DNA from: Bryobacteraceae bacterium
GTDB taxonomy: Bacteria > Acidobacteriota > Terriglobia > Bryobacterales > Bryobacteraceae
Length of the DNA stretch: 64,000 nucleotides
Assembly (NCBI GenBank): GCA_963714395.1
Contig: CAVQOO010000068.1
Coordinates: forward strand, 18,728-82,727
Reading direction: 5' to 3'
Below, in pieces: positions 23,807-45,707 of this stretch. The notes beneath the pieces are model-generated. The model was not told where the DNA came from, ran no database searches, and saw only the letters and a program-made list of their open reading frames with translations. Both the position numbers and the translations under genes were made by a program. How positions within the stretch are numbered: the stretch's first letter is position 1; every line of letters begins with the position of its first letter.

Positions 23807-26081
23807 GGCGTGACCGACTTCACGTGGAAAATCACCAACAAGGGCAACACCGGCGTCTCCTACAACGCCAAATTGCTCGAGGCGGGTCCGAAGTTCTGCT
23901 GCCCGCAGGGGTGTCAGAGCGCGGGCAACTGCCCAACGGGTTGCTACAAGTGCCAGCTGGTTCTCCGCAGGACGTATCCCACTCCGGCGGCGAACGGATG
24001 TTCTCCGACCGTGAGCGTTCAAAACATCCTGGTCTCAAGCGTTCTCAATCCGAGGCTTCTGGATGCCTCTCAGGGCGACACGCCTGACAACTCTCCCGAT
24101 GAGAAGAACTCGACTCTGGCTCTTGGGCCGGGCGAGGCGGGCCGCATGACGCTGCGGGTGTTTGGCCTCAAGACGGGGACCGTTCCACCCGGGCTCACTC
24201 AGCCTGTCGCTGTGTCCGCTTCCGGTACGGCGGCCAGCGACACTTCCGTTACAATCACAACCTTCTCATTGCCGCCAGGCATGCTGGGGCAGCCCTTCAA
24301 CCAGACCATCACGTCAATCGGCGGCTCCGGTCCACGCGAATCTGGACCGTGTACAGCGGCACACTTCCACCCGGCCTCACTCTGGACCCGTCAACGCAAT
24401 TGATCGCCGGCACGCCCGTGGCCTCGGCCTCGGCCGTGCTGTCTGGAACCCCGACTCAGGGAGGTACGTTCACTTTCACGCTTCAGGTCAAGGACACGCC
24501 GGCCGGGCGCCTGCAGTGTAGAAAAGACAGCGGACTGCGTTCAGCCTCACGTAGACCGCCAGACGTACACACTCACGGTGAACGACTTCAAGCTCTTGTC
24601 CGTGACGCCATCCAAGCTGTTTGCCAAGTCGGGAGACACGATCACGGTCACAGCGGCTGTCACTAACCTCGGTCCCGATGCGGTTGCCAATGTCGCAGCC
24701 GGTCAGCTTCAGCTCAACTCGAACGGATCGACCGCTTCCGCTTCTTGCGGACCGGCGGCGCCGGTTTCCGTGAGTCTGGCCGCCGGGGCTTCGCAGAACT
24801 TCTCCTACGTCTGCTCAGGCTTCAGCGGTAACGGCTCGGTTGCTTTCAGCACGCAGGCGTCGGCCACGCTGAACGGAGGGCCATCATTCCAAACGCCGTC
24901 TGTTGTCCTCGGCGCCGGTCGTGGTCGACAACGTGCAGCCAACATTCAGCCCGGCCGTCATCCTCTCAGGCGGCCAACCCTACACTCCTGGGCCAGGCAA
25001 CTGGACCAGCCAGAACGTAACGGTGACCTTCGCATGTACCGACAGCTCAGGGATTGCCCAACAGCCGCTGAGTCCTCAGACCTTGAGCGCCGAAGGCGCG
25101 AACCAATCCGTCTCGGCTACCTGTGCGGACAATGCCGGCAATAGCACAACCCAATCCGTGACCGGCATCAACATTGACAAGAACCAGCCGCTGATCAGCT
25201 ACACCATGTCAGCTGGCGGGGCCGTCTACACAGCGGGAACCTGGACCAATAAGGCGGTGAGCGTTCTCTTCGCTTGCACGGATACTCTCGGGGGGGCCGT
25301 GCTCGCCCCGGCTACGAATCCCCGGGTTCTGACCACGGAGGGCGCGAACCAGTCGGTGTCCGCGACGTGCACTGACATCTCCGGCAAGTCTGCTACGGCG
25401 ACTGTCTCCGGAATCAACATCGACCTGACTCCGCCGGTGATCACCATCACGACACCGGCCAACGGCGCTTCGTATACGCTGGGCGCGAGCCTGACCACGA
25501 GCTATTCCTGCACCGACCCAATGTCCCCCGTGACATCCTGCACCGGGCCAGTGGCCTCGGGCGGAACTCTGACGCTATCCACGGCCGGACCGGGATCATT
25601 CGCAGTCAGTTCGTCGAATGCCGCAGGCAATACCGCAACTGCTGCATCGAGCTACACTGTCGTCGCTCCCCCGCAGTTCACCTTCGTCGGGTATCTGACG
25701 CCGCTCAAGACCGCCGGTACCTATTCAGGAACGGCGAAACTGGGCTCGGCTGTCCCGGTTAAGTTCCAGATCCTGGACGGCTCGCGAGTCACCGTGTCGA
25801 ACATTGCTGCGGTTGCTTCCATCCGCAGTATCTTCACTGGACGCCCCACTGGCGGGACGTGCCCCATCAGTCTGGCGGGAACGAGCACGGTGCTTTACGC
25901 TCCGACAACCGGCGCCACGGGAGGCAGCACTTTCCGGATCGACACCGGGAACACTTTCATCCTGAACTGGGACTCCACGAGTGTGGCTCCCTTGGGAGTA
26001 GGATGCTACACGGTCGTAACCGAACTCGCACCAGCCTACGGGGGACTGGTCCGGTCGACGAGCATTCAATTAACTCGTTAG
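23357..26081 (+). CDS. large secreted repeat protein ((S/N)PDIV pentapeptide array plus multiple Ig-like/putative-Ig domains), several frameshifts
   Basis: GTG start at 23357. The repeat array is followed by LPPGLTL...GTP...GTFTFTLQVKD (putative Ig domain) and Thr/Ser-rich Ig-like domains in ORFs 24349..24666, 24578..25144 and 24903..26081. It may be contiguous with the upstream BNR protein. Confidence 0.45.
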
Positions 26082-31099: not shown

Positions 31100-32902
31100 A
31101 TGCAGATGTATGTCTACGCGGGCCTGGCCCTATTAGGGCTGGTGCTGCTCGCTGTATTGAGCAAAGTGTTGTTTGGCTGGGTTCTCATCCGGGAGGACCA
31201 GGTCGGCCACGTGGTTCGGAAGTTCGGCGCGAAGGATCTGCCGCAGGGGCGGATTGTCGCCCTGGAGGGTGAGGCCGGTTATCAGGCGCGTACACTCGCT
31301 CCCGGCGTCCATTTCTGGTATTGGCCGTGGATGTTCAAGGTCGACCGGAAACCAATAGTGGTGGTGAAGCCGGGACAGATTGGCCTGGTGGTGGCCAAGG
31401 ACGGCGACGCGCTGCCGCAGGACAGGATTCTCGCTCGCCGCGTCGATTGCGGGAACTTCCAGGACGCGGAACAATTCCTGCGAAACGGGGGCCAAAAAGG
31501 CAAGCAGAGCGCGGTGCTGACCACCGGAATGTATCGCATCAATCAGGTGCTGTTTGAGATTTTCACCGCCGATGTGACTTCGGTGCCTCACAACAAAGTG
31601 GGCATCCTGACGGCCAGGGACGGCGCTCCCATGCCGGCAGGCCAGATGGCGGCCCCGGTGGTGGGAGGCCATTCGAACTTCCAGGATCCGGAAGCCTTTC
31701 TGCACAATGGCGGATACCGCGGTTTGCAGGAGCAAATCGTGCTGGCCGGCCAGTACAATCTGAATCCGTGGTTCGTCGACGCCGAACTGGAGGAACTGTA
31801 TGAGGTCCCGATCGGGCACGTCGGCGTTGTGGTGAGCTTCGTGGGCAGCGACGAGAAGGACATTTCCGGCGAGTCCTTCACCCACGGCAACATCGTCCCG
31901 CGGGGAGGCAAGGGTGTCTGGAGCGAGCCGCTGTATCCCGGCAAGCATCCGCTGAACCTGCGCTGCATGCGCGTTGAACTGGTACCGACCACGAACATCG
32001 TGCTCAACTGGGCAGACGCCCGAAGCGAGGCGCACAAGCTGGATGAAAAGCTGTCGACGATCACAGTCCGTTCGCGCGACGGCTTCACGTTCAATCTCGA
32101 CGTCAGCCAGATCATCAACATCGGTGCAACCAAGGCGCCATGGGTAATCAGCCGAGTGGGCAGCGTTCGCAACCTGGTGAATCAGGTGCTGGAGCCGCTG
32201 GTGGGCAACTACTTTCGCAACAGCGCGCAGAACTACACGGTGCTCGACTTTCTGTCGGCGCGCAGCGACCGGCAGCGGGAAGCGCGGGAGCACATCAGCC
32301 GGGCGATTCTCGAATACGACGTTCAAAGCGTCGATTCCCTGATCGGCGACATCACACCGCCTGCGGCACTGATGGACACGCTGACCGCGCGCAAACTTGC
32401 GGAGGAACAGAAGAAGACGTTTGAGGTGGAGCGGGAAGCTCAGGAGAGCCGCAAGACGCTGGAAGCGGAGAAGGCGCTGGCCGAAAAGCAGCGCGAACTG
32501 GTCAACGAGGAACAGAATGTGATGATCGCGCAGCGCAAGGCGCAAGCAGCGGTGCGCCATGCCGAAGGCGATTCCTCGGCGATGTCGATCCGCGCCAACG
32601 GCGAGGCGGAGGCCATTCGCCGCCGGGGTACGGCCGAGGCGGAGATCTCGGCCATCAAGGGCGAGAACGAGGGCCGGGCGATTCAGGCTGTCGGTTTGGC
32701 CCGTGCGGAGGCGGCGCGCAAGGGCGTCGAGGCGATGGGCGAGTACTATGGGCTGCTGCAGATTTTCCAATCGCTGGCCGAAAAAGGCATCCGGCTGACT
32801 CCGGATGTCATGGTGGGCGGCACACAGCCAGCGGCATCGGATGCCGTGCTGGCGTTGCTGGCGGCGCAGATGAGCAAAGCGACGCAGCCGAAGCACGATT
32901 GA
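31100..32902 (+). CDS. flotillin-like SPFH/Band-7 membrane protein (YqiK/FloA-like)
   Basis: 600-aa intact ORF preceded by an RBS (caggag). N-terminal TM helix (LALLGLVLLAVL). SPFH region. Long Ala/Glu/Arg/Lys coiled-coil tail (LAEEQKKTFEVEREAQESRKTLEAEKALAEKQRELV...) typical of flotillins. Confidence 0.8.
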   Translation: MQMYVYAGLALLGLVLLAVLSKVLFGWVLIREDQVGHVVRKFGAKDLPQGRIVALEGEAGYQARTLAPGVHFWYWPWMFKVDRKPIVVVKPGQIGLVVAKDGDALPQDRILARRVDCGNFQDAEQFLRNGGQKGKQSAVLTTGMYRINQVLFEIFTADVTSVPHNKVGILTARDGAPMPAGQMAAPVVGGHSNFQDPEAFLHNGGYRGLQEQIVLAGQYNLNPWFVDAELEELYEVPIGHVGVVVSFVGSDEKDISGESFTHGNIVPRGGKGVWSEPLYPGKHPLNLRCMRVELVPTTNIVLNWADARSEAHKLDEKLSTITVRSRDGFTFNLDVSQIINIGATKAPWVISRVGSVRNLVNQVLEPLVGNYFRNSAQNYTVLDFLSARSDRQREAREHISRAILEYDVQSVDSLIGDITPPAALMDTLTARKLAEEQKKTFEVEREAQESRKTLEAEKALAEKQRELVNEEQNVMIAQRKAQAAVRHAEGDSSAMSIRANGEAEAIRRRGTAEAEISAIKGENEGRAIQAVGLARAEAARKGVEAMGEYYGLLQIFQSLAEKGIRLTPDVMVGGTQPAASDAVLALLAAQMSKATQPKHD

Positions 32903-32932: not shown

Positions 32933-34378
32933 GTGCTAATTTTGAAGTTTGGCTCCGCTCACGAGGCGGTTTTCGTGCAGGTATTTCTACAAGGCAAAAT
33001 CCTGGGCGCCGACGGGTTTGTCGAGGCCCACGGAAGTGATCTTCAACAACTCGGCGGGAGTTGTCTCTATATTTCCCTGCTGAGCGAGGCGGTTCCGCGC
33101 GGCCTCCTGGACGCGCTTAAACTGTCGCCGGAGCTGCTGGGCTCCAGCGGCGGCGGCCAGTTTCTTGTCCTGCTGCCAGGCGAAATCCTCGCCGAGGCCA
33201 ATGCCTACCTGACTGAAGCGACGCGACGGCTCGCGGCGTTCTCCGGCAGGCGTTTGAGGCTGGTTTGGGCCTCGACGGAGAACCTGGGAGTATGGAGCGA
33301 CGTCCGGCGCCGTCTCGACGGCGAGATGGTCCATTGGAGCGGCCTGAACGCATTGGAGCCGGACGGATTGTTCGATCCTTTCGTTGACTCACTGCAGGGC
33401 GGCGAGTGGATGGGCAGCTTGTTCGAGAGTCTGCCGGACTCGGCCGCGGCGGTGCTCGATTTCGCAGAACCCGGCTTGCTGCGGCGCGCAGGCGATCCGC
33501 ACGCCGTGGCGACGCACCGGGCATTGAACGATGCCGGGGATGCGCCTGCCACGCTGAAGGACCTGGCCGAACGAGCGCAAGGGCGCAGCGCCTGGGGGAT
33601 TCTGCGAGGCGAAATCGACCAGTATGAGTCGCGGCTGCGGCAGGCACAGAGCGTCGAGGAGTACATGCCGCTGACGGCTTTCTTCAAGCCGTTTTTCACC
33701 GGAGAAGTTCAGGTTCTGTGCATGCAGGGCGCATTCTGGCGGAAGGTGACGGTGCTATCAGCCGGCGGCAACGGCTTTGCGGTGGCCGGTTCGTGGGACG
33801 CGCTGATCGAGTTTGCGCGGGAAATGCAGCGGTTGTATCACCGGACGGCGGAGGAAGTGCTGCGCGAGCAGGCTGGTCCGGAGGCGAAAACGCTCTCGAT
33901 GGGACTCGCCCTGGCCGCGACGGCGGATTCGGCCCCCGCGCCGGTGTGGGTAGAGGCAGGACGTCAATTGAGCGTGGCAAAGTCATCTTCTCGGGACTCT
34001 ATCTCGGTATTTGGCCGTGTTGTGGATTCAAAACAGCTCGCCGAAGCCTCGGATTTGAAGAACCTGATGGTTCGCCTGGTGGACGAGTTTGGGGCAAGCC
34101 CGCAATTCCTCGGGGAGTTGGGAGCGTTTTACCGCGAAACCGACCGGGTTCTGCCGGCACGCAACCAGCAGCGGCAGGCCGATGCGCAGCAGCGTCCTTG
34201 GCGGCTGCATCGCCGGTTGAACCGCGTGCTTGACTCGGAAGGTCGCCACCGTGATTTTCAAAAGGCTCGCGCCGCAGTGCAGGCAGCGTTCCTCACGCGC
34301 GGGCAGGGACAATTGAAGCTGAGGCCCTCCGGCCGCGTCGCCCTGGAATGGGCGCGGCTGGCCAAAGAGGCGGAATAA
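32933..34378 (+). CDS. Cas10-like large subunit (two degenerate palm/cyclase-like domains, no HD domain)
   Basis: GTG start 30 nt after the flotillin stop. ...LLGSSGGGQFLVLLPGE... (near 33140-33185) and ...LSAGGNGFAVAGSWDALIEFAREMQRLYH...TLSMGLALAA (near 33756-33900) mirror the Cas10 GGDD segment (GGDDllv.g.wd.v.ela..i...f...TiSaGi), with GGDD replaced by GGGQ and GGNG. Size of 481 aa. Position at the head of a csm2-3-4-5-like operon. Confidence 0.5.
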   Translation: MLILKFGSAHEAVFVQVFLQGKILGADGFVEAHGSDLQQLGGSCLYISLLSEAVPRGLLDALKLSPELLGSSGGGQFLVLLPGEILAEANAYLTEATRRLAAFSGRRLRLVWASTENLGVWSDVRRRLDGEMVHWSGLNALEPDGLFDPFVDSLQGGEWMGSLFESLPDSAAAVLDFAEPGLLRRAGDPHAVATHRALNDAGDAPATLKDLAERAQGRSAWGILRGEIDQYESRLRQAQSVEEYMPLTAFFKPFFTGEVQVLCMQGAFWRKVTVLSAGGNGFAVAGSWDALIEFAREMQRLYHRTAEEVLREQAGPEAKTLSMGLALAATADSAPAPVWVEAGRQLSVAKSSSRDSISVFGRVVDSKQLAEASDLKNLMVRLVDEFGASPQFLGELGAFYRETDRVLPARNQQRQADAQQRPWRLHRRLNRVLDSEGRHRDFQKARAAVQAAFLTRGQGQLKLRPSGRVALEWARLAKEAE

Positions 34379-34380
34379 TA

Positions 34381-35130
34381 ATGAGCGAAATCGAAGAGCA
34401 GAACCAGAATCTTCCGGAAGAAAATCCGGAACCCAGGCCGGAGCCGGCAGTGGAAGCTCCTCAGGCCGCCGAAGCGCCTGCTGCTGAGGCTCCAGTTGCC
34501 GAGGTTTCGCCGGCGGCATCGCCCGCGGAAGCTCCGGCTGCCGCCGCCGCACCGGCGGCAGGCGAACCTAGGCCGGAGCGTCCTCCCCGCGGCGAAAGAA
34601 GCGATCGCGGACCGCGCCCGGAACGAGGACCTCGCCCTGAGCGCGGTCCCAAGCCTGAACGCAGCGAGCAGCGCCCCGAGCAACGTGGCGGCGAACGTCC
34701 AGGCGGCGGCGACCGCGGTGGAGACCGAGGCAGACCTCCGCTTCGGGGCCGGGAAGGTCCGCGCCCCGGCGGACGCCCGCCCGAGCTGATGCTGGACATC
34801 GATCTCGAAAAGCTGATTCACGACAGCCTCTATCTGGACAACCAGGCCCACACCGTCGTGGTTCGCATGCGCGACATGGACTCGGGCACCCGCAGCCAGC
34901 TTCGCCGGCTGTTCAGCGCCACCCGCCGCGCCTGCCGCGCGGTCGAGTCCGAACGGCAGCACCACTTTGTGATGCTGCGGGCACGCCTGGCCTATACGAT
35001 TGCGCGCCATCAGTTGCGCAGCCTCGATCCGCTGGAAAAGCTTCTGCTCCAGGTCACGCGAAAGAATGACCCGCGCGGCTACGAGCGTTTCCGCGATCTC
35101 TTCGAGGCCATTGTGGCCTACAACGAGTAA
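34381..35130 (+). CDS. Cas11/Csm2-like small subunit candidate with a roughly 130-aa low-complexity Pro/Glu/Arg/Ala-rich N-terminal extension
   Basis: ATG immediately after the cas10-like stop. The N-terminus is repetitive (PERGPRPERGPKPE..., GGDRGGDRGRP). The C-terminal ~110 aa look alpha-helical (LEKLIHDSLYLDNQAHTVVVRMRDM...LRARLAYTIARHQLRSLDPLEKLLLQV...FRDLFEAIVAYNE) at the position where csm2 sits in III-A operons. Confidence 0.4.
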   Translation: MSEIEEQNQNLPEENPEPRPEPAVEAPQAAEAPAAEAPVAEVSPAASPAEAPAAAAAPAAGEPRPERPPRGERSDRGPRPERGPRPERGPKPERSEQRPEQRGGERPGGGDRGGDRGRPPLRGREGPRPGGRPPELMLDIDLEKLIHDSLYLDNQAHTVVVRMRDMDSGTRSQLRRLFSATRRACRAVESERQHHFVMLRARLAYTIARHQLRSLDPLEKLLLQVTRKNDPRGYERFRDLFEAIVAYNE

Positions 35131-35155
35131 GGGCCCAAACGAGGAAGGAGAATCC

Positions 35156-35989
35156 ATGAGTTCCCATACCGCCGATACGAAGCTCGGCCTGATCGGCAAG
35201 CTCCTGCTCGATGGCGAGCTGATTTGCGACACCGGCCTGCACATCGGTGCGGGCAAAGGCTCGCTCGATTTGGGCGGAGCCGACAATCCGGTCGTCAAGG
35301 ACGCTTTCGGGCGTCCCTACGTCCCTGGCAGTTCACTGCGGGGGCGCATCCGGGCGCTGCTCGAGCAGGCGCACGGCCACGCTGTCGCCTCCGATCTGGT
35401 CTACTTGTCGCGCCGCCGCGGACAGGAAGTCCGAATTCATCAGAGCGACGATCCGGGTGACGAAATCTGCCTGCTTTTCGGGCGCAATCCGGGCCGCATG
35501 GAGCGCGTTTCCGGAGATGCGCTGGAGCCCTCGTCGGCGACGCCAGCGAGGCTCACCGCCTATGACGCTCCGCTGGAGCTGGACTCGATTACAGTGCAGA
35601 TGCGCGAGAATCTCGACGACGAACTGACTGAGGTGAAGAGCGAAAACTCCATCGACAGGCTGACCGCGCAGGCTCTGGCACGCACATTGGAGCGCGTCCC
35701 GGCGGGGGCGAGGTTCCGGGTTCGGTTCGTGATCGACATCCTGTGCGCGGAGGACCGCGAACTGGTGTCGCCATTCGTGGCGGGCATTCGATTGCTGGAA
35801 GACGATTCGCTCGGGGGAGGCGGTTCCAGAGGCAGCGGCCGAGTGCGCTTCACGTCGTGGAAGGTCTCCTGGCGGAACAAGTCCTACTACACAGCCGCCG
35901 GCGCCGAGGCGACACTGGCCTCGGCCGGCACGACAGCCGAACTGCAAGCCGCGGTCGCCGATCAGGAATTCTCCGGACGCCTGGCCTAA
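35156..35989 (+). CDS. Cas7-group RAMP, Csm3-like backbone subunit
   Basis: RBS ggaaggag before the ATG. ...CDTGLHIGAGKGSLDLGGADNPVVKDAFGRPYVPGSSLRGRIRALLE... matches the Csm3 N-terminal signature, including the catalytic-loop Asp in G.DNP..KD and the PxxPGSSxKG motif. The C-terminal glycine-rich loop is LGGGGSRGSGRV. Confidence 0.7.
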   Translation: MSSHTADTKLGLIGKLLLDGELICDTGLHIGAGKGSLDLGGADNPVVKDAFGRPYVPGSSLRGRIRALLEQAHGHAVASDLVYLSRRRGQEVRIHQSDDPGDEICLLFGRNPGRMERVSGDALEPSSATPARLTAYDAPLELDSITVQMRENLDDELTEVKSENSIDRLTAQALARTLERVPAGARFRVRFVIDILCAEDRELVSPFVAGIRLLEDDSLGGGGSRGSGRVRFTSWKVSWRNKSYYTAAGAEATLASAGTTAELQAAVADQEFSGRLA

Positions 35990-37011
35990 TGAACCCCGCC
36001 CTGCTCGTTCGTCTCCGGCCCCTCACGCCGTGGCGCATCGGGAGCGATTCCGGCGCCCGCGAGCAGGCGTCCGCCGTGTATTCCAGCGACACTCTATTCT
36101 CGGCAGTATCCGGGGCATTCCAGCAGCTTGGCTGGCTCGAGGAGTGGCTCGGGGCCACAGTGCGGGGGGTCGAAGATCCCGCCGTGCGATTGACCAGTGC
36201 CTTTCCGTTCCAAAAGGGACTCCTGTATCTGCCGCCTCCCTCGGGGTTGTGGCCGCCGCCCGGAGAAAGCCGTGTGCGCTGGAAGGGCGCCCAACTGCTG
36301 CCCGCGCCGGTCCTGGCCGGACTGCTGCGCGGAGAGATGCCTGGCGAAGAAGAGTGGACCATTGATGGCCAGAGCGCTTGTCTCGTGCCCTCGCGACAAC
36401 GAGGGGCGGCCGGTCCGTATCGATTCCTGCGCCGCTCCCATGCGGCAGTCGACCGGCTTACCGGCGGCATCGCGGAGCCTTATTCCGTCGCTTGCACACA
36501 GTTCGCGCCTGAGGCGGGACTCTGGTGTGCCGCGGAGTTCTCTTCCCACACGGCATATGCGATCTGGTCGCCCAAACTACAGGCGGCGTTCCGGCTATTG
36601 GCCGACTCCGGACTCGGCGGCCTGCGGAGTCGCGGCTTTGGCCGTTCGCGGACCCCACTCTTCCAGGCGGGTACGCTTGCGGAATTGATCTTCGGGGCCG
36701 CGGCGCCAGTGTCTGCCGCCGCGCCTGCCGCATGGTGGCTCCTTTCGCTCTTCTCGCCTGCCGGTGACGACGCGGTCCATTGGGAACGGGGCAGTTACGA
36801 TCTCGTGACCCGCACCGGCCGCGCTGTTGACGGACGGCTGAAGCTGTCGACTCGCATGGTCCGCGAGGGAGGCGTCCTGGTTTCGGATAAGCCCTTGCGA
36901 GGCACGGCGCTCAATGCCGCTCCGCCCGAAGCGCCCCATCCATTGTGGCGCGCGGGTTTCGCCGTCGCCCTGCCGATCGCATGGTCCGGCGCTGGAAGGG
37001 GGGTGGCATGA
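35989..37011 (+). CDS. Cas5-group RAMP, Csm4-like subunit
   Basis: Start overlaps the csm3-like stop (TAATG). N-terminal ...PWRIGSDSGA...YSSDTLFSAVSGAF is Csm4-like. Glycine-rich loop GLGGLRSRGFGRS. Position after csm3 matches the III-A order. Confidence 0.6.
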   Translation: MNPALLVRLRPLTPWRIGSDSGAREQASAVYSSDTLFSAVSGAFQQLGWLEEWLGATVRGVEDPAVRLTSAFPFQKGLLYLPPPSGLWPPPGESRVRWKGAQLLPAPVLAGLLRGEMPGEEEWTIDGQSACLVPSRQRGAAGPYRFLRRSHAAVDRLTGGIAEPYSVACTQFAPEAGLWCAAEFSSHTAYAIWSPKLQAAFRLLADSGLGGLRSRGFGRSRTPLFQAGTLAELIFGAAAPVSAAAPAAWWLLSLFSPAGDDAVHWERGSYDLVTRTGRAVDGRLKLSTRMVREGGVLVSDKPLRGTALNAAPPEAPHPLWRAGFAVALPIAWSGAGRGVA

Positions 37012-38174
37012 CGCGCTACCGTCTCACAGTCTTGACGCCGATGCTGATCGGCGACGGCCAGAGATTGGCCCCGATCGATTACATGGTCTGGAAAGACCAG
37101 GTCAATGTGCTCGACCAGAAGAAGATCTTCCGGCTCCTGGCTAAAAGTCCGCGGCTGGACAGCTACCTGTCCCAAATCCGCCGGGCCGACAAGCTGGACT
37201 TCAACTCCTGGGGCGGCTACGCCCAGAACTATGCGCTGCGCCGCATTCCGCTCGAGTCCCCGGCCCTGGGCCGCGTGTTTGAGCGCACTCTGCCGGAGCA
37301 CCTCTTTCTGCCGACTTTCGCCACCACTCCCTCCGGGAGCCTCCATATCCCGGCCACCGCAATCAAAGGAGCGTTGAGGACAGCGCTGCTGACGCAACGG
37401 GCGACGAACTCCCATTGGGCACAGTTCTCTGAACGGTTGGAAGCCGCCGAACGGGCGCCCAGAAGTCCCGGCGAGATCCTGGAAGCGGCCGTTTTGGGTT
37501 CACAGGGGCAAGCCCGCACTCGGGGGTTCCTGCTGGCCGACTCGGAGCCGCGCCCCGCGGGCGGGCTGACTCGAATCTACCTGACCCGCACGGCCACCCT
37601 CGTCGATCGCGGCGGACGACTCGAACTTGGCTGGAAAACCGCGCCTCGCGGCACGCTGGACGGTAAGCGCGCCGCTGACGCAACGCCAGTCCTGGCTGAA
37701 ATGGCCATTCCGGGGAGTGTGTTCGAAGGCTCGTTCTCCGAGGCGCCATTTTTCCGCCGGACAGAGACCCTGCGCGCCCTGAACTGGAAGGAATCCCCCG
37801 GGGCGCTCCGCTATGCGGAAGCCTCAAACGCATGGGCCGCACGCTGTCTCGCCGCTCAAAGGATCTGGGCCGAGAAGGCCGCGATTCCGGCCGTCATCCG
37901 TTCACTCGATACCCTGGAAGCACGCCGCAAGGATCTGGAAGCCTCGCGCACTGGCTGCCTGGTCTGCTTGGGGTGGGGGACTGGCTATCTGCCCAAGGCC
38001 GCCGATCCGAATCCGGAAGATGAGGTCAAGGACAAAGTTCTGCGCTCGCTTCCGGTGATCGCGTCGGCCATTCGTACTGGCTTGCCCTTTCCCAAGACGA
38101 GGCGGATCGTATTCAGCGCCGATCAGCCGGCGACGCTGCCAGGCTGGGCGGCAATTCAGTTCGAACTCTCTTGA
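37008..38174 (+). CDS. Cas7-group RAMP, Csm5-like subunit
   Basis: ATGA overlap with the preceding gene. ...PSGSLHIPATAIKGALRTALLTQ matches the Csm5 P.IPGSS.KGalRt motif. Glycine-rich loop CLGWGTGY. Confidence 0.6.
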   Translation: MTRYRLTVLTPMLIGDGQRLAPIDYMVWKDQVNVLDQKKIFRLLAKSPRLDSYLSQIRRADKLDFNSWGGYAQNYALRRIPLESPALGRVFERTLPEHLFLPTFATTPSGSLHIPATAIKGALRTALLTQRATNSHWAQFSERLEAAERAPRSPGEILEAAVLGSQGQARTRGFLLADSEPRPAGGLTRIYLTRTATLVDRGGRLELGWKTAPRGTLDGKRAADATPVLAEMAIPGSVFEGSFSEAPFFRRTETLRALNWKESPGALRYAEASNAWAARCLAAQRIWAEKAAIPAVIRSLDTLEARRKDLEASRTGCLVCLGWGTGYLPKAADPNPEDEVKDKVLRSLPVIASAIRTGLPFPKTRRIVFSADQPATLPGWAAIQFELS

Positions 38175-38263: not shown

Positions 38264-39169
38264 ATGTACAACGCTTTTTTCGGCTTTCGGGAAAATCCAT
38301 TCAACCTCAGCCCGGATCCCGCGTTCCTCTATCGAAGTCCGCAGCACGATGAGGCTCTCGCGAACCTGATCTACGGCGTTCACAGCCGGAAGGGGTTCAT
38401 TGTCCTGACCGGCGAGGTGGGTACAGGCAAGACCACTATGCTCGAGTGTCTCCGGGACTATCTGGAGGCCCAGTATATTGAGTTCGCCTTCATCTTCAAC
38501 TCCAGGATTTCGTCGGACCAGTTTTTCGAGATGATCGCCTACGATCTCGATCTCCGCTGCTCGCACAAGTCCAAGACAGAAGTCCTCTTTGCCCTCAATC
38601 ACCTACTGATCCAGCAGGCCAATCAAGGGCGCACCACGGTGCTAATCGTCGACGAAGCCCATAACCTCGAGTGGGATGTACTCGAGGAGATCCGGCTCCT
38701 GGGAAACCTGGAGAATCCGCGCCTCGGCAAACTCCTGCAGATAGTACTTGCCGGTCAGCCCGAGCTTGACCGGAAACTCGATGCCCCGAACCTCCGGCAG
38801 CTCAAGCAGCGCATCGTGCTCAGGTGTTCTCTATCTCCGTTCCAGCCGTCCGACACCGAAGCCTACATTCGAGCCCGGCTCGACAAGGCGGGCATGCCCG
38901 ATCAGAGCGTGTTTTCGGCTCCATTGATACGGGAGATTCACACGCGAAGTCAGGGGATTCCCCGCATTATCAATGCGCTCTGCGACAACATGCTCCTGAC
39001 GTGCTTCGCTCTGGAACGACGCGATGCCTCGGCTGAAATGCTCGAGGAGATCTGCAGGGACATGCGGCTCGAGTGGCCGGGGATGCCGCAAGTTCGTGGC
39101 GCACGAGGCGGATCGGATCGGCCCGGGTCTGTGGACACGACCGCTTCGCTGTCTTCTCACATGGACTGA
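38264..39169 (+). CDS. ExeA/GspA-like AAA+ ATPase (PEP-CTERM-locus ATPase-like family)
   Basis: MYNAFFGFRENPFNLSPDPAFLYRSPQHDEALANLIYGVHSRKGFIVLTGEVGTGKTTMLECL closely follows the ExeA N-terminal pattern and Walker A. Walker B is VLIVDEAHNL. Intact 301-aa ORF, 90 nt downstream of the csm5-like gene. Confidence 0.8.
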   Translation: MYNAFFGFRENPFNLSPDPAFLYRSPQHDEALANLIYGVHSRKGFIVLTGEVGTGKTTMLECLRDYLEAQYIEFAFIFNSRISSDQFFEMIAYDLDLRCSHKSKTEVLFALNHLLIQQANQGRTTVLIVDEAHNLEWDVLEEIRLLGNLENPRLGKLLQIVLAGQPELDRKLDAPNLRQLKQRIVLRCSLSPFQPSDTEAYIRARLDKAGMPDQSVFSAPLIREIHTRSQGIPRIINALCDNMLLTCFALERRDASAEMLEEICRDMRLEWPGMPQVRGARGGSDRPGSVDTTASLSSHMD

Positions 39170-39409
39170 TCTGGCTATCGAACGGAGACTCAGATAAATC
39201 CTACCAAAGTCCTAACATAGGTCTAAGTGTAACTTTCCATTCGCCTTAGGCGTAGTTAAGAGAAAGTACTGTGAGTAATAGTAGGATTAATCCTAAGAGA
39301 CCTGCCAATAGTTGCATCTTAGGCTAAGGAAGATCCCTTAGTCTGAGGGAATTGCCCACCTGCACTGTTCACTGCGGGCAAGGCAGACAAAACGAAGGTA
39401 AAACCTCAG

Positions 39410-39854
39410 ATGTCCAAGCTGCTTGGCATTAGTCTTATTTGTGCTACGCTCCTTTTGATTGGGCTTTCCGCTACTGCGGGAACGCTCCCAATTGGTACGG
39501 ATGCAAACTCTCTCTCCCTTGGCCGCGATTGCCTCCTCCCGAATCCCTGGGATGATAAGCTCTCCCTCGGCCCGATGCCTCCTCCCGAATCCCTGGGATG
39601 ATAAGCTCTTCCTCGGCCCGATGCCTCCTCCCAATCCCTGGGATGATAAGCTCTTCCTCGGCCCGATGCCTCCTCCCAATCCCTGGGATGATAAGCTCTT
39701 CCTCGGCCCGATGCCTCCTCCGAATCCCTGGGATGATAAGCTAGCAGGCCTTCTCCGCCGAATTTTGCGAACCAAAGCCGACGAGTTTCCCCCCTGGGGG
39801 GCAGCCTGTCGGCTTTCATTTTGCTTCCGATTATTATTGTGTAAGCCAAGCTGA
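39410..39854 (+). CDS. possible small secreted repeat protein (15-aa PNPWDDKLFLGPMPP units) running through the tandem repeat
   Basis: RBS-like aggtaaaacctcag before the ATG. The signal-peptide-like N-terminus MSKLLGISLICATLLLIGLSATAG is in ORF 39410..39601. Coding continuity through the repeat requires the 46-bp units to be 1-nt indel errors (ORF 39459..39854 then reads ...PNPWDDKLFLGPMPPPNPWDDKLFLGPMPP...). Confidence 0.3.
39530..39750. repeat. perfect tandem direct repeat, 45/46-bp unit, about 4.7 copies, no spacers
   Basis: Units gcctcctcc(c)(g)aatccctgggatgataagctct(t/c)cctcggcccgat begin at 39530, 39576, 39622, 39667 and 39712. The periods are 46, 46, 45 and 45, and the copies are otherwise identical. 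Confidence 0.9.
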
Positions 39855-40226
39855 CCGCGAAAGTGCCTGAGTCCGCTGATTGTCTACGGAGTAGTTGGCA
39901 TTTCTGCGACGCTGTATGTTTATCTCCTTACTCTCCTGCTCAAAGGGTATGCCCGTTCCTATTTCGGATTGCTCCTGTATGTCGTAGTCTTGACGCTGAC
40001 GACTGGTGATGGACATGGCAGTTTACAAGTCCGAGGGCTGGAGCAATCTTTTCCTGATCAGTGAGACGGCCCGATGGGTGTGCCCTGTATCTGGTTGTGC
40101 ACTCATTCGTATGGAAGGCGCTTTCATCCAAGCCGGGCCTGGGGTGGATCCGGCACTGGCTTATCGCAGTCAGCGTCCTCATCGTGGTTCGCAGCGTTGT
40201 ACTTCACCCACAGCGAAAAGGCATCG

Positions 40227-40514
40227 ATGTGGGTGCTGAGGACGATCAACATTATCAGCATTGCTGGCATGGTGCTGAACCTGATTCTCTGGACATTGCT
40301 GGTTCGCTACCGCAATACGGACCTCACATTGTTCCTGGTGACGAGCGGATTGGGAATCCAGGCTGCGATGGAGGCTGCGGCATGGTCGATGCGAAGCCTC
40401 AGCATCCGTAGCCTTTTTGGCGCTGCATACTATGTACAGATTCTCGGCCACTTGCTTTGCTTGCTTATCTGGATCATGGCCTTTCGCCGCAAGGCCCCAA
40501 GCTCCAAGGCCTGA
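40227..40514 (+). CDS. small hypothetical membrane protein
   Basis: Hydrophobic segments (INIISIAGMVLNLILWTLLV; ILGHLLCLLIWIMAF) within ORF 40074..40514. No family recognised. Confidence 0.3.
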   Translation: MWVLRTINIISIAGMVLNLILWTLLVRYRNTDLTLFLVTSGLGIQAAMEAAAWSMRSLSIRSLFGAAYYVQILGHLLCLLIWIMAFRRKAPSSKA

Positions 40515-43500
40515 CTACGGCGTGACGGTGTAGCTACCCGTCTGCGGTGAAGGACTGGTGAGTCCGGCTGAATCTGTGGCGTTCATCCAGATCGATTTGG
40601 TTCCCGTGAAGCCGGGGATGAAGGCGATATCGAGCATGACGGTGAGCGTGTTGCCCGAGGCGATCGTCCAGGAACCTGATCCGTACACCCGGCATTGGCT
40701 GTTCTGCACTGTCTGGGCGGCCCCGAGTGTCAAGGACGTGCTCAGCGCAGCGGCGTCGTCGGCCAGCATCACCTTGCCCGCGGCTATGTCGACTTGCAGG
40801 TAGCAGGCCTGATTGGCTTGCTGTACCGAGTTGATCAGGACGCGGGGCCAAAGGATATCGTGAGCTCCGTTGGCATCGGTCCAAGTCAATGTGAACGTCT
40901 GTCGCGCCCCGCTGGCAGCAGCAGGGGAAACGCTAACGGAGATGGGCGCTGCCGGCAGATTGCTCATGACATCGTACGTGCCCAATTGGGGCGCGGCGGA
41001 GGTGAGTCCGCCGAGATCAGTCGCGTTCATGAATACGGCCTTCAGTCCGTTGAACTTGGCTTTGAAGCGAATGTCGATATAGGCGCTGAGTGTGGAGCCG
41101 GTGGCCTGAACACTGGAACTCTGCATTTGTAAAGCGCATTGCGAGTTAGCGACAACGTCGGAGGTTCCCAATCGGCCCGCCTGCGACGGGCTGCCGGCAT
41201 CGTCGGCCAGGGTCACAAGCCCCGCGGCGCGGTCGATCACGAAGTAGCATCCGCCCGGAGCCTGCTGTGAAGAGTTGATCAGCACCCTGGCTGAGCTGAT
41301 GTCGTTGGCGCCATTGGCGTCGGTCCAGACAAACTGAAAAACCTGCCCGCCACCGGAACCGGTGGAGGGCGAAACAGAGACCGGAACCGGCGGTAGCTGG
41401 GCGCTGGCAGCCACCGTGTATGTACCCATCAGCGGAGTCTGGCTCAGCATTCCCGCCGTGTCGAGCGCGTTGGCCCAGAGGGACTTGGCGCCATTGAAGA
41501 CAGGTTTGAAGGAGAGATCCAAGCGGGCTACCAAAGTGCTCCCCAGGATCTGTAAGCTGGTTCCGCTTCCCCGCAGCGTGCACTGGCTATTGGAGGCGCT
41601 GGCCTGTGCGCCCGCCTGGACCGGACTCCAGGAGGCGCCGTCGTCGGCGGCCAACGCGACGCTGCCGGTGGCAGGTCTTACCTGGAGGTAGCAGCCCCAC
41701 GCGGCCGACTGCGCCGAATGGATCAGGACCTCCGCCCTCTGAATGTCCGCGCCGCCATTGAGATCGATCCAGGAGAATACGAACACCTGCTCCGACCCCG
41801 ACCCCGCGGACGGAGTCAGGGACGATGCATGAGGCGCCTGATTGACAGGAACAACGACCGTGTAGCTTCCCATCCAGGGAGAATCGCTGGTCGCGCCGGA
41901 AAGGTCCGTGGCATTAGCCCAGACGCTCTTGGCGCCGTTAAATGGACTCTTGAACGAGAACTGGAAGCTGACGCTCAGTTTTGTCCCGCTCAGCAGCAAG
42001 GAGCTTCCCGCCGTATGCACGGTGCACTGACTGTTGGACAGGGCGACCCCTGAACCCGCGGCAGCCGCACTCCATCCAGAGCCCGTGTCGTTGGCCAGCG
42101 AGACGGCCAGGGTCTGCCGGTCGAACGCGACATAGCAGCCCGCCAGCGAGGTCTGCGAGGAATTGACGAGGACTCTGACGGTCCTGATGTCCTGGGGGCC
42201 ATTCGCATCGGTCCACTCGGCCGTCAGCGTCGTTCCCGTTCCACTGCCCGAACTCGGGCTGACCGAGAGTGGGACTGGCGACATGTTGATGATGACGGCG
42301 ACTGAAAACGATCCGGTCTGCTGCCAGCCGCTGGTTGCCGCCGAAGCGTCTTCACCGGCCGTCCAGATTGTCCGGGCGCCGTTGAAACCCGGGAAGAAGG
42401 CGATTTCAATACTCCAGTGGACCAGTTGGCCTTCGACCGCGACAGTCACCCCGGCCGGGCGCATCTCACAGCGGCTGTTGGCGACAGTCTGCGATGAGCC
42501 GACCGCAGCCAAGAGCCAATCGCTACCGGCATCGTTGCGGAGGCGAAGTGTGGAGGTCCTCCTGTCCAGTTCCAGCAGGCATGCTCCCGAATCCTGGGCC
42601 ACGTTGTGGAAGCGCATCCTCAGGAGAACCAGGTCGGAGGCGCCATTGCTGTCGGCGTATGTGATCGTGAATCGCTGCAGCGCACCCCCTCCCGCCGAGG
42701 GCGTCAACTGAACGAACACCGGAGCTGTGTTGTTGTTCGCCATGGGCGGAAATAGTCCGAAATCGAGATACCCCGTTTGCGCACCAGATGCGTCCGTAGC
42801 GGATGCGTAGATCGACTTGACCAGCGGGTTGGACGAGGCGAAGATGATGTCGAAGCCTATTTGAAGCCCGTTGGCCGTAAAGGAAATCACGGTTGCAGCC
42901 GGGCGAAGCTGACAGTGGGAATTAGCCAGCGGCGCGGCCGTGCCTGGAGCGGCCGAGTACCACCCGGTTCCAGAATCGTTAACCAGCCTAAGCAGCCCCG
43001 CTGCCCTGTCGTACTCCACGGCGCAAGCGCCAGCCTCGACGGGTGAAGTTCCAACCAGCAGGCGGACCTTTGCCAAATCTCCGGCGCCGTCGGCATCGGT
43101 GGCGAGCACGGTAAAGACCGCACCGACACCTGACGCGGTAGAGAAAGTCGCGGAGGCGACATCGGGAGGCGTATTGGCCTTGTCGGGTACGATCCACGTC
43201 CCGCCGCTGACATACCCGCTTTCGGCTTCGTCCACGGCTCGTGCAGCCGCAGCGATGGAGCGGGAGCCGGCAAAGGCTTTTGTGAAAGACAGACTGAGCC
43301 GGATGGAGACGCTCGTGCCTCCAACGGAAACTGTTGAGGTTGCACCTGAGAGGGTGCAGGCAGCCCCGGAGCTCGACGATGCCGTGCCTGGCGTAATGGG
43401 GATTTCTGTCGCGCCGCCCTCAGGCAAGACCATCAACTGGCCGGAGGAACGGATCCAGCGGACACGGCAAGTCAGGGACGCTCCGAGCAGATCGCCTAAA

Positions 43501-45707
43501 GCAAGTTCGACCCAGTTGAATTGGGTGGCGCCATTGGGGTGGGATGCCTGCACTTCGAAGACTCCCTGCTCGCCAGTGCCAGATGCCGGCGTTATCGAAT
43601 CGATCTGAGGCGCCGGACCAAGCGTGAAGCGAGTGACGAAGAACCGGAGTGCGCTGCCTGAAGGGGCGGGGGCCGGCCCACGCAGGGGGAGGTCGGGCGA
43701 GCCGCTCTGTCCGGCCACGACAACGGAGTTGCCCGGCGCCGGGGCGACTGCAAACACCGTGTCCGCACCTGCGCCGCCAATGTAGGTCGAGAATGGAACA
43801 GCCGTGCCGTCGGGTGTGAAGATCGTCAGAAACCCATCGGTTGAGCCCCGATAGCTCGTCACGACAGGATCCTGCAAAGGCAGGTTGACGGAAGTAGTCG
43901 CACCGCCCACGGCGATTCGCCCGTCGGGGAGCAAAGCCATGGTTTGGATCATGTCCTGGCCTCCGCCGCCAAGATAAGTCCCCCAGGCGAAACCGTTCAG
44001 CCCTGGATGGAGTTTGACGAGGAAGCCATCCCGGACACCTCCCATGGTTCCCAGCCACGCGCCCGGAGCCGGGAAATCAGCCGAGGGCGTATAGCCTGCC
44101 GCGTAGACATTGAGAGATCCGTCTACGGCCAGGGCCTCGACGCGCTCCGGCATGCTGGCCGTGCCAGCGCTCCCGCCCAGGTATGTGCCGGCAAGGATGA
44201 GGCTCCCCGATGAGGACAGCTTGAGGACGAAGCCGTCGAGCGCTCCCCGAAGGGAAGGCTGCGCCGCCCCAGGTGGCACGGGAAGGTCCGCTGAACCCGT
44301 TGACCCGCCCGCCAGAATGTCGCCGCCGGGCGCGATGGCGAGGGTCCGGACCAAGTCGTCGCCACCGCCTCCCAGGTAGGTGCTGTACTCCATGGCCCCG
44401 CCAAGGCCGTACCGGGCGACAAAACCATCCGTGGCCCCTCGGAGCGCCGTCTGCGGCGCGCCGGATACGGGGAAGTTCGTTGAAGAGGTCTGCCCTCCCA
44501 CCCAAACTCCCGTGGCCGATGCCGCCACCGAATAGGCTGAATCGTTCTGTGTGCCCCCCAGGTAGGAGCTGAAGAGCAGTTGCGATCCGTCAGCGGCGAA
44601 TTTCAGCAGGAAGGCGTCCGTGCCTCCCCTGGGTGAGGAAGCCGCACCGGCAACGGGGAAGTTCGCCGAGTTCGTACTGCCTGCGACAACGAGGCCTCCG
44701 TCGCTCGAGAGGGCGATCGCCTGCGCGCGATCATCGCCATTGCCGCCGATATAGTTGGCCCACAGAAGTTTGCCGGTTGCCGGATCCAGTTTGATCACGA
44801 CTGCATCAACCCCGCCTCCACGGGGAAGAATTGCCGCTGCCTGGGGGAAATCGGAAGCGTCGGTGTAACCGGCGACGTACACTGAGCCAAATGAATCAAC
44901 GGTCATCGCCGTGGCTGCGGAGATCCCGTTGCCGCCGAAGACGCCGCTGTAGTTGATCGCCGGATCGATGATCAGGCGCTCGTCGTTGAGCAGGGGTGCA
45001 ATGAAGCCGACGGAGTGACCCTCCTGCCCCTGGTGGATTCGAAACGAGACGTCGACGGGCTCGCCTGTCTCCGTCCAGGCGCGCGGCGGATCCTCGCGCC
45101 ACAGGCCATCGGGCATCTCAATCAGCAAGCCCCCGCCGGGTTCCACGCGAACCGCCCGGGCACCGTCGAAGGCAACCCGGATGACATCGGAAGAGACTCC
45201 AGGCTCGACAATGTAGTCGGACTTGATGCGGCCTTCACCGCCCATGAGCCGCAGGGAGATGCCCGGCCAGAGACTCTCAATGAGCAGGCACTCGCCGGAT
45301 TCAGATGTTTGATGCGGCCGTTCTCCCTCGCCCGTGAACCAGCGGATCGGCGCGCGCTGGCCGGTGCAAAGCTTCGCATGCGGGTGGGCCGCGCTGCCTG
45401 GATATCTGATGCGAAGGGTCCTGCCACTGTCCTGGAGACTCAGCGCCGGGCCGTCCGGACCGTTTTCCCAGGAAAGCCGAACTCCTCCGTCGGCTCGCCA
45501 GATCCCGGGCGCCGCCTCGAAGAACCACAATGGACCAGTCACTCCCGCGACCCGAGGTGAGGCCCATGCTTGCGACATCGCCAGCAGCGCCGTCAACGCG
45601 GCACGCCACGGCAGACCGGTGTTCTCCACGTTGGGCTTATCGACCGCCCCGGACGGAATTTGAATAGTGCCGGCACCCCTTAGCCCGTGCCGCGGGTGCC
45701 GTAGCAT
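40515..45707 (-). CDS. giant secreted protein with SBBP-type beta-propeller repeats and at least eight tandem ~140-aa Ig-like domains
   Basis: 1730-aa intact ORF. N-terminal signal. Repeated ...AIALSSDGGLVVAGSTNSANFP... (SBBP-like) units. Then repeated domains of the form SPS.GSG....F.F.W.D.NG..D....RVL.NS.Q....GCY...D......L..D.G..W... Confidence 0.8.
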   Translation of the reverse strand: MLRHPRHGLRGAGTIQIPSGAVDKPNVENTGLPWRAALTALLAMSQAWASPRVAGVTGPLWFFEAAPGIWRADGGVRLSWENGPDGPALSLQDSGRTLRIRYPGSAAHPHAKLCTGQRAPIRWFTGEGERPHQTSESGECLLIESLWPGISLRLMGGEGRIKSDYIVEPGVSSDVIRVAFDGARAVRVEPGGGLLIEMPDGLWREDPPRAWTETGEPVDVSFRIHQGQEGHSVGFIAPLLNDERLIIDPAINYSGVFGGNGISAATAMTVDSFGSVYVAGYTDASDFPQAAAILPRGGGVDAVVIKLDPATGKLLWANYIGGNGDDRAQAIALSSDGGLVVAGSTNSANFPVAGAASSPRGGTDAFLLKFAADGSQLLFSSYLGGTQNDSAYSVAASATGVWVGGQTSSTNFPVSGAPQTALRGATDGFVARYGLGGAMEYSTYLGGGGDDLVRTLAIAPGGDILAGGSTGSADLPVPPGAAQPSLRGALDGFVLKLSSSGSLILAGTYLGGSAGTASMPERVEALAVDGSLNVYAAGYTPSADFPAPGAWLGTMGGVRDGFLVKLHPGLNGFAWGTYLGGGGQDMIQTMALLPDGRIAVGGATTSVNLPLQDPVVTSYRGSTDGFLTIFTPDGTAVPFSTYIGGAGADTVFAVAPAPGNSVVVAGQSGSPDLPLRGPAPAPSGSALRFFVTRFTLGPAPQIDSITPASGTGEQGVFEVQASHPNGATQFNWVELALGDLLGASLTCRVRWIRSSGQLMVLPEGGATEIPITPGTASSSSGAACTLSGATSTVSVGGTSVSIRLSLSFTKAFAGSRSIAAAARAVDEAESGYVSGGTWIVPDKANTPPDVASATFSTASGVGAVFTVLATDADGAGDLAKVRLLVGTSPVEAGACAVEYDRAAGLLRLVNDSGTGWYSAAPGTAAPLANSHCQLRPAATVISFTANGLQIGFDIIFASSNPLVKSIYASATDASGAQTGYLDFGLFPPMANNNTAPVFVQLTPSAGGGALQRFTITYADSNGASDLVLLRMRFHNVAQDSGACLLELDRRTSTLRLRNDAGSDWLLAAVGSSQTVANSRCEMRPAGVTVAVEGQLVHWSIEIAFFPGFNGARTIWTAGEDASAATSGWQQTGSFSVAVIINMSPVPLSVSPSSGSGTGTTLTAEWTDANGPQDIRTVRVLVNSSQTSLAGCYVAFDRQTLAVSLANDTGSGWSAAAAGSGVALSNSQCTVHTAGSSLLLSGTKLSVSFQFSFKSPFNGAKSVWANATDLSGATSDSPWMGSYTVVVPVNQAPHASSLTPSAGSGSEQVFVFSWIDLNGGADIQRAEVLIHSAQSAAWGCYLQVRPATGSVALAADDGASWSPVQAGAQASASNSQCTLRGSGTSLQILGSTLVARLDLSFKPVFNGAKSLWANALDTAGMLSQTPLMGTYTVAASAQLPPVPVSVSPSTGSGGGQVFQFVWTDANGANDISSARVLINSSQQAPGGCYFVIDRAAGLVTLADDAGSPSQAGRLGTSDVVANSQCALQMQSSSVQATGSTLSAYIDIRFKAKFNGLKAVFMNATDLGGLTSAAPQLGTYDVMSNLPAAPISVSVSPAAASGARQTFTLTWTDANGAHDILWPRVLINSVQQANQACYLQVDIAAGKVMLADDAAALSTSLTLGAAQTVQNSQCRVYGSGSWTIASGNTLTVMLDIAFIPGFTGTKSIWMNATDSAGLTSPSPQTGSYTVTP

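Follow-up and report, generated by a model that had tools for sequence, protein, structure and literature searches.

The 64,000-nucleotide window analyzed here, from a Bryobacteraceae bacterium (GenBank assembly GCA_963714395.1, contig CAVQOO010000068.1, positions 18,728 to 82,727), contains a tandem array of 45/46-nt units, which an earlier note on this DNA had read either as a coding 15-amino-acid repeat or as a noncoding element. Comparative sequence analysis identifies the array as the coding part of a small, secreted, repetitive protein rich in proline. The gene for this protein forms, with an AAA+ ATPase gene and a gene for a seven-transmembrane (7TM) protein, a conserved three-gene unit in Bryobacterales (Acidobacteriota). 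Taken as a whole, the best explanation, in which we have good confidence, is a coding repeat of a secreted proline-rich protein that belongs to this unit and may have a role in the cell envelope. A suspected odd RNA or array resembling CRISPR is resolved as a coding repeat whose frameshift is probably an assembly artifact. Secreted tandem-repeat proteins are a known kind, and the family itself is uncharacterized. The analysis defines this small protein family, which has no Pfam or NCBIfam model, and the three-gene unit in abundant, poorly studied soil bacteria. The members of the unit in the window are as follows.

38264..39169 (+): GspA/ExeA-type AAA+ ATPase gene of the XrtA/PEP-CTERM-system ATPase family (TIGR03015, AAA_22)

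39512..39742 (+): tandem array of five 45/46-nt units in the repeat gene, from Tandem Repeats Finder (TRF), an exact 20-mer census and a unit table

39863..40514 (+): gene for a 7TM (seven-helix) membrane protein of ~213 amino acids, from tblastn with intact orthologs and a profile hidden Markov model (HMM)

TRF describes the array with period 45, 5.0 copies, 96% matches, 2% indels and a score of 402. This confirms the tandem repeat reported earlier and moves its start about 18 nt upstream, to a degenerate first unit. The window contains exactly five copies of the 20-mer AATCCCTGGGATGATAAGCT (39542, 39588, 39633, 39678 and 39723); its expected count in shuffled sequence is 0. The periods are register dependent, reproducing the earlier series of 46, 46, 45 and 45 when counted from 'gcctcctcc' and giving 46, 45, 45 and 45 when counted from the AAT core. 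The units stand head to tail at a spacing of 45-46 nt, equal to the unit length, without spacers. Few substitutions separate them (ctcTCc in unit 1 versus ctcTTc; ccC versus ccG), as the earlier note had observed, and its AT-richer flanks are borne out by a GC content of 0.45-0.50 at 39100-39500 and 0.49-0.51 at 39800-40100, against ~0.60-0.70 in the surroundings. Exact 20-mer scans over genome and metagenome contig collections returned zero copies of the DNA unit, and by this measure the unit appears species specific at the DNA level.

Orthologous repeats occupy the equivalent site in relatives. We kept 80 loci (numbered with the prefix L) from an ATPase-based scan, with 73-91% ATPase identity; nearly all are Bryobacterales, assigned to Bryobacteraceae, Paludibaculum or 'Candidatus Solibacter'. 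A blastn search with 39170-40520 recovers a repeat region in tandem register at the equivalent position in 9 of these 80 loci. At least 44 of the 80 carry, after the ATPase gene, an intact open reading frame (ORF) composed of a Sec-type signal peptide and 2-9 tandem units. Over the 1.3 kb past the ATPase gene, TRF finds arrays in 40 of the 80 loci, 38 of them of this family. The period is divisible by 3 in all 38 (range, 33-144 nt), and each of the 38 lies within an ORF that begins with a signal-peptide-like segment. Additional loci have two-copy versions (n = 5) or a repeat gene 1.6 kb farther away (n = 1).

Common to the intact orthologs is the core P-P-P-(D/N)-P-(W/L/H/F), after which come Gly or acidic residues, and the protein usually ends immediately past the last core. 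L004 encodes a signal peptide, five copies of GPVPPPNPWEDKFAI and the C terminus NPWEDK*; L009 and L005 have intact ORFs with 8-9 copies of SPLPPPDPWGDxLxI; and in L027 DPF replaces DPW. In Paludibaculum fermentans P105 (CP063849.1), the genome of which is finished (PMC8407742), the gene is annotated (5016586-5017062; 9464-9940 in locus L081) and encodes 158 amino acids with eight units, period 45 and 0% indels. An exhaustive HMMER search of 1.84 billion cluster representatives yields 38 proteins at E <= 1e-3, mostly of 46-230 amino acids and of the same build. The closest family member (P0019, locus L083) is 82% identical to the window protein and consists of (ALGPAPPPNPWDDKV)n with the end NPWDDK-TAA. 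Between species the period varies from 11 to 27 amino acids, the copy number from 2 to 9, and the linker residues as well, whereas the units of one genome are near identical. This pattern fits concerted evolution by unequal recombination. A word-indexed protein search with the corrected window protein and the P. fermentans ortholog gave no match, the index being limited for repetitive sequence.

Both the ATG at 39410 and the N terminus resembling a signal peptide are present, as claimed in the earlier note.

39410..39481 (+): start codon and Sec-type signal peptide MSKLLGISLICATLLLIGLSATAG, whose N-region is basic and whose hydrophobic core leads to an A-x-A-like end

The closest orthologs begin with MSKWLSFSVLCVTILLAGIPASAG (L001) and MSKSLGFVALCVTILLAAAPASAA (L002), and a simple rule finds, in the window and in 43 orthologs, a basic start, then at least 11 hydrophobic residues in a row and an end made of small residues. 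The N-terminal segment may instead be an uncleaved signal anchor. The ORF that starts at 39410 with MSKLLGISLICATLLLIGLSATAG stays in frame through unit 1 and stops in unit 2; units 2-5 sit in a second frame, and the window as given holds the ORFs 39410-39601 and 39459-39854. A single base sets the two frames apart.

39587 (+): extra G in unit 2 (cccGaat), the sole base by which the remaining repeats are put out of frame with the signal-peptide ORF

Removal of G39587 alone fuses the ATG frame with the repeat frame. The counterpart of cccGaat is cccaat in units 3 and 4 and ccgaat in unit 5. Of the four complete units that follow the degenerate first one in the window, three are 45 nt long, and the one extra base at 39587 interrupts the ORF. 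The earlier suggestion that the 1-nt length differences are indel errors is the best reading, with the refinement that G39587 is the only one that actually breaks the frame. Unit 1 as given reads ...SLSLG-RDCLL-PNPW and holds three extra bases, G39525, T39530 and G39541, which cancel one another; without them it becomes SLSLGPMPPPNPW, as in all other units. Beyond the last unit the frame is open for 37 more codons, through a strong terminator-like hairpin, and removal of C39741 gives ...NPWDDK-TAG. C39741 is probably a fifth extra base that masks the stop, since the closest ortholog likewise ends in ...NPWDDK*, and the 37-amino-acid tail is then artifactual.

39410..39744 (+): reconstructed coding sequence of the repeat protein, minus 39525, 39530, 39541, 39587 and 39741

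With these five bases removed, the gene encodes 109 amino acids: the signal peptide, a short linker, five units L[SF]LGPMPPPNPWDDK and the end ...NPWDDK*. This C terminus is supported by P0019, which ends in NPWDDK* and has a terminator hairpin after the stop. If the extra bases are errors, the true gene is a continuous ORF of ~109 amino acids.

The way in which the units differ from one another speaks for translation. Within 34 arrays, differences from the array's own consensus comprise 361 synonymous and 231 nonsynonymous changes, a synonymous share of 60% against 26% expected from random changes (p = 3e-72); in L007 the differences are 28 synonymous and 0 nonsynonymous. Of the six frames, the signal-peptide frame has the highest synonymous fraction (0.60) and four others have 0.06-0.10; the antisense in-phase frame reaches 0.53, as expected because it shares the third codon position. 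In the codons of the PP(D/N)P core, the third position takes any of the four bases across 29 species. By these codon patterns, the core PPP(D/N)P(W/L/H/F) and the acidic residues after it are under purifying selection. The idea that the array is instead noncoding, either an RNA (structured or processed) or iteron-like regulatory DNA in which sites for protein binding are arrayed, can appeal to the frame not being kept in the window and to the placement of the array between an AT-rich conserved region and a terminator-like hairpin. It is contradicted by the periods in multiples of 3 in 38 of 38 orthologous arrays, the strong frame-specific synonymous excess, the conservation of signal peptides across the intact orthologs and DNA divergence between species that is free at third positions. 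Furthermore, the folding energy of the array equals that of shuffles (z = 0.03), and an Rfam search gave nothing at the gathering score and, at E < 1, chance-level matches only. We therefore reject the noncoding reading, to which we assign next to no probability, and the other half of the earlier note's alternative, a coding 15-amino-acid repeat in a small signal-peptide protein from 39410, is borne out by the orthologs and the codon pattern.

How did the coding array come to be frameshifted in the window? The same kind of lesion is found in the 7TM gene, where tblastn with intact orthologs matches window frames 1, 2 and 3 in succession. Four single-base insertions lie near 39872, 40005, 40079 and 40186, and once they are deleted a single ORF, from MPE... 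to the stop, can be aligned with the orthologs. The five extra bases of the repeat gene bring the total to nine inferred events in ~660 nt (39525-40186), all of them +1 insertions, with no deletions and no nonsense substitutions. Nine insertions without any deletion in ~660 nt favor assembly error over decay, and we regard single-base insertion errors of the assembly as the probable origin of the 46-bp units. The statement in the earlier note that indels are frequent in the window is also supported, as two further genes each fall into two frames.

2347-4338 and 14199-15351 (-): two unrelated frame-split genes, with frameshifts outside the region studied

These are genes for an OMP_b-brl_4 (TonB-dependent-receptor-like) protein and for a GFO/IDH/MocA oxidoreductase, each split over two overlapping frames. 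A frame plot of GC content at third codon positions (GC3), made over the whole window for frameshift mapping, was too noisy. The repeat arrays of this family are a recurrent assembly trouble spot. The orthologous array of the long-read metagenome-assembled genome (MAG) L006 (7207-7914) is frameshifted internally, and the arrays of the short-read MAGs L003, L052 and L079 are broken by N-gaps.

Real frameshifts, meaning that the repeat and 7TM genes are decaying pseudogenes or that the repeat gene has been turned off by a slippage-type event, seem to us unlikely. The given sequence is indeed frameshifted, the lesions cluster in two functionally linked genes while the neighboring 5.2-kb ORF is intact, and the Cas10-like protein encoded farther upstream reads GGNGF where relatives read GGD[ED]F, which could mean local decay. 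However, nine +1 insertions are unaccompanied by deletions, stops made by substitution or larger lesions, and the three insertions of unit 1 restore the frame inside 17 nt. With the bases removed, both proteins align full length to intact orthologs, and unrelated genes of the window are frame-split as well. As for a slippage switch, a unit of 45 nt is far beyond classical slipped-strand phase variation for a frame change, and a change in copy number keeps the frame because the unit is 45 nt. A phase-variable contingency locus with a tract of 1-8 nt was considered and rejected: the frameshifts are isolated extra bases and the unit number is unchanged. Assembly error remains the preferred account, and local single-base insertions are relevant to any other finding from the same window.

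The repeat gene has conserved neighbors. The ATPase matches Pfam AAA_22, is of the GspA/ExeA/MshM type and scores 287 bits over the full length of NCBIfam model TIGR03015, short of its curated cutoff (324.5). In a sample that started from six different members of the repeat-protein family, all 7 loci with enough flank have an ATPase homolog directly upstream of the repeat gene. Orthologs of the 7TM protein have ~205-240 amino acids. By profile HMM, the 7TM protein is present in 22 of the 80 ATPase-sampled loci, always directly 3' of the repeat gene and never without it, and among 10 loci sampled from the repeat protein, 9 have its gene immediately downstream. Gene order of this kind is what the three-gene unit of ATPase, repeat protein and 7TM protein denotes. 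Beyond it, on the other side of the lower-GC stretch, is a large gene in the opposite orientation.

40515-45707 (strand other than that of the repeat gene): DUF7948/SBBP protein of 1730 amino acids

The neighbor at this place varies. The three-gene unit is followed by an OmpA-family gene of opposite orientation in L085 (2410-3204), L090 (2254-3033) and L091 (1435-2214), in each case on the minus strand, and a DUF7948/SBBP giant protein takes its place in Paludibaculum-like genomes. L085, L090 and L091 appear, from their lower ATPase scores, to come from more distant relatives.

What might such a unit do? After export, the repeat protein would be an acidic, polyproline-II-like chain, extended in shape and with the PPP(D/N)PW motif present in several identical copies. 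The chain would serve in the cell envelope as a spacer, a tether or a multivalent ligand, and it would act jointly with the ATPase and the 7TM protein, as GspA/ExeA does with GspB/ExeB. This envelope mechanism, drawn by analogy, is offered tentatively. The ATPase domain of ExeA is required for its complex with ExeB, and ExeB and TonB share a proline-enriched region (PMC4098917). The repeat gene resembles gspB/exeB in following a gene for an AAA+ ATPase of the GspA/ExeA family, and the repeat protein resembles GspB/ExeB and TonB in having an N-terminal hydrophobic segment followed by a proline-rich region predicted to be periplasmic. The proline-rich part here differs from that of GspB/ExeB in consisting of exact tandem units with a PPP(D/N)PW core instead of a low-complexity linker, and unlike GspA/GspB systems the three-gene unit has no secretin gene. 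The repeat protein is also reminiscent of PEP-CTERM proteins, being small, secreted and repetitive and lying beside an ATPase of the XrtA/PEP-CTERM-system family. In contrast to them, it has no C-terminal PEP motif, transmembrane (TM) helix or basic cluster and ends after the last repeat, and the NCBIfam PEP-CTERM models do not match it.

Several points count against the explanation as a whole. The ORF is discontinuous in the window sequence as given; and the adjacent ORF of 1730 amino acids (40515-45707) is intact, which would require the errors to be spread very unevenly over the contig. About half of the ATPase-sampled relatives have no repeat gene beside the ATPase, and the 7TM partner is absent from about half of the repeat-gene loci. 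As to the analogy with secretion ATPases, the ATPase here has ~300 amino acids and, unlike ExeA, neither a TM nor a peptidoglycan-binding domain; unlike GspB/ExeB and TonB, the repeat protein has no C-terminal globular domain, and neither T2SSB nor TonB_C was matched when the window protein and four orthologs were scanned against Pfam and NCBIfam. The same proteins gained no Pfam or NCBIfam membership, the sole line being a sub-threshold SsdA_C match in L029 (20.1 bits versus a cutoff of 27), and the repeat protein received no PADLOC-type assignment.

Two comparisons outside secretion systems bear on the same chain. Eukaryotic endocytic adaptors contain DPW, DPF and NPF repeats, arrays of short linear motifs in disordered proteins. 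The repeat protein is similar in its several Asp/Asn-Pro-aromatic motifs, variable linkers and proline-rich chain, but it is bacterial and exported, and the likeness is at the motif level only. Multi-core precursors, such as fungal Kex2-processed repeat proteins and the multi-core precursors of ribosomally synthesized and posttranslationally modified peptides (RiPPs), consist of repeated cores. Like these, the repeat protein has a signal or leader peptide followed only by near-identical units, with a copy number that varies between relatives. It could be a multi-copy precursor that is cut after export into identical short peptides, sensed by the co-encoded 7TM receptor-like protein. No processing site, protease or modifying enzyme is conserved near the repeat gene, however, and we consider a precursor improbable. 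The conserved residues of the 7TM protein suggest no protease-like catalytic set. A broader version, in which the repeat protein and the 7TM protein are a peptide-ligand/seven-helix-receptor pair driven or gated by the GspA-type ATPase, is a speculation with a somewhat smaller chance still: the exported chain, or peptides cut from it, would show 2-9 PPP(D/N)PW motifs to be read by a membrane protein with a G protein-coupled receptor (GPCR) fold. If true, such a pair would be a previously undescribed envelope signaling or assembly module in Bryobacterales. The exported chain acting with its two partners in the envelope is the proposal that we tentatively retain.

Another question is the relationship of the repeat gene to a Csm cassette nearby.

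32933-38174 (upstream of the ATPase gene): type III-A-like Csm cassette, with a short Cas10-like protein, Csm2, Csm3, Csm4 and Csm5

The earlier note had placed the array just downstream of this cassette. The position is true, and it misleads, as the ATPase gene intervenes and it is with the ATPase that the repeat gene travels. Its statement that the array is not CRISPR proves correct: there are no spacers and the array is coding. With a 45-nt tandem unit near cas (csm) genes and an AT-rich region before it, the array does look somewhat like a CRISPR array. Unlike one, it is spacer-less, has a unit that is a multiple of 3, is translated in the signal-peptide frame and is not tied to cas genes. 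Among the ATPase-sampled loci, 36 hold both the cassette and the repeat gene, 24 the cassette with no repeat gene adjacent and 4 a repeat gene but no Csm; in two loci reached from the repeat protein, L084 and L086, the ATPase gene is preceded by infC and not by Csm. L085 and L090 are short contigs in which the sequence ends on the upstream side of the ATPase. Because the repeat gene occurs without the cassette, the cassette without the repeat gene, and infC before the ATPase in L084 and L086, the Csm cassette is, on this evidence from gene order, a neighbor and not a partner of the three-gene unit.

One could still suppose that the array is CRISPR related, namely, a spacer-less or degenerate array or a fixed source of guide RNA for an array-less Csm cassette. 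The type III-A-like cassette 1.3 kb upstream, a window without a CRISPR array and the 36 loci that hold both genes would suit this idea. Against it stand the coding array without spacers, the 24 loci with the cassette but no adjacent repeat gene and the 4 with the reverse, infC in L084 and L086 and a unit length that ranges from 33 to 144 nt between species, which together leave it hardly any probability. That the array-less Csm cassette uses a transcript of the repeat locus is a reading more remote than the peptide-ligand/receptor pair. The array is best kept as the body of the repeat protein.

The cassette has features of its own. Of 73 evaluable Bryobacterales loci, 60 have it immediately upstream of the ATPase. 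Its Cas10-like protein has ~470-480 amino acids and no HD match, and species share 88-91% identity in its Csm2 part. No CRISPR-like spaced array turned up in a k-mer scan that covered the 64-kb window and ~1 Mb of related loci. Judged from these sequences, the Csm module looks vertically conserved and possibly array-less. A literature search on array-less Csm in Acidobacteria or Solibacter, or on partners of PEP-CTERM ATPases, found nothing relevant. At ~33764-33778 (residues 278-282) the Cas10-like protein of the window reads GGNGF, and 17 relatives have GGDEF or GGDDF. The degenerate cyclase motif is either a real change or a sequence error, in the window copy only. A Cas10-like protein that is cyclase-dead across the family was rejected, as the relatives read GGD[ED]F. 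Directly before the Cas10-like gene, with a stop and 30 nt between them and no change of frame, is an SPFH/Band 7 ORF of 600 amino acids (31100-32902, plus strand); P. fermentans P105 has a 1131-amino-acid protein and a VWA protein in its place. The three-gene unit and the adjacent, apparently array-less Csm cassette are the parts most worth further work.

The flanks of the repeat gene carry conserved signals.

39282..39295 (no strand): palindrome TAGGATTAATCCTA (core GGA-N4-TCC) in the AT-rich intergenic region, putatively an operator or promoter-associated

39335..39349 (+): hairpin CCCT-tagtctg-AGGG, putative 5' leader

39394..39399 (+): Shine-Dalgarno-like GAAGGT, 10 nt upstream of the ATG

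39774..39826 (+): intrinsic-terminator-like hairpin AAAGCCGACGAG...GTCGGCTTT then CATTTTGCTT, from the minimum free energy (MFE) fold

Of 43 orthologous loci, 24 have GGA-N4-TCC at 106-136 nt upstream of the start codon, and palindrome positions G36, A37, T42 and C43 are invariant in a 26-species alignment; the palindrome is likely an operator or a promoter-associated site, as far as its sequence tells. The leader hairpin is kept with altered stem bases, e.g., ACCTGA...TCAGGT in L011, a weak observation made by eye, and RNAalifold on the MAFFT alignment of the upstream regions did not recover it, finding merely the 3-bp palindrome core. The palindrome and the small hairpin, whose distance to the start codon is fixed in many species, together probably represent an operator or a leader. 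CGAAGGT before the start codon is conserved in most orthologs. A promoter scan found none upstream of the repeat gene, and sigma-54 and sigma-70 promoters were rejected by eye for the conserved upstream region, as the spacings did not fit.

At the other end, the MFE of 39744-39835 is -34.9 kcal/mol, with the hairpin at 39774-39816 followed by CATTTTGCTT; a simple terminator scan of the window missed the 39774-39826 hairpin. A GC-rich hairpin lies within ~50 nt of the stop in all 10 orthologs L001, L002, L004, L005, L007, L009, L012, L016, L020 and L029, and a clear T-run follows it in L001, L002, L020 and L029 and also in L083. Given the conserved upstream region, the Shine-Dalgarno sequence and the hairpin after the stop, the repeat gene looks like a transcription unit of its own.

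Two other repeats were met. At 23367-23792, in the plus-strand ORF 23357-24403, the window has an imperfect 15-nt period with ~28 copies and 67% matches, and also a 90-nt period, probably a coding repeat of the pentapeptide type. L044 has at 4160-4385 a head-to-tail repeat of ~37 nt (AAGAAAGCCGCTCGCAGGCCGGAGGCCTGCGCCACAA), which is hairpin forming, has no spacers and reaches the contig end; it lies 3 kb from the ATPase gene and is unrelated to the 45-bp repeat.

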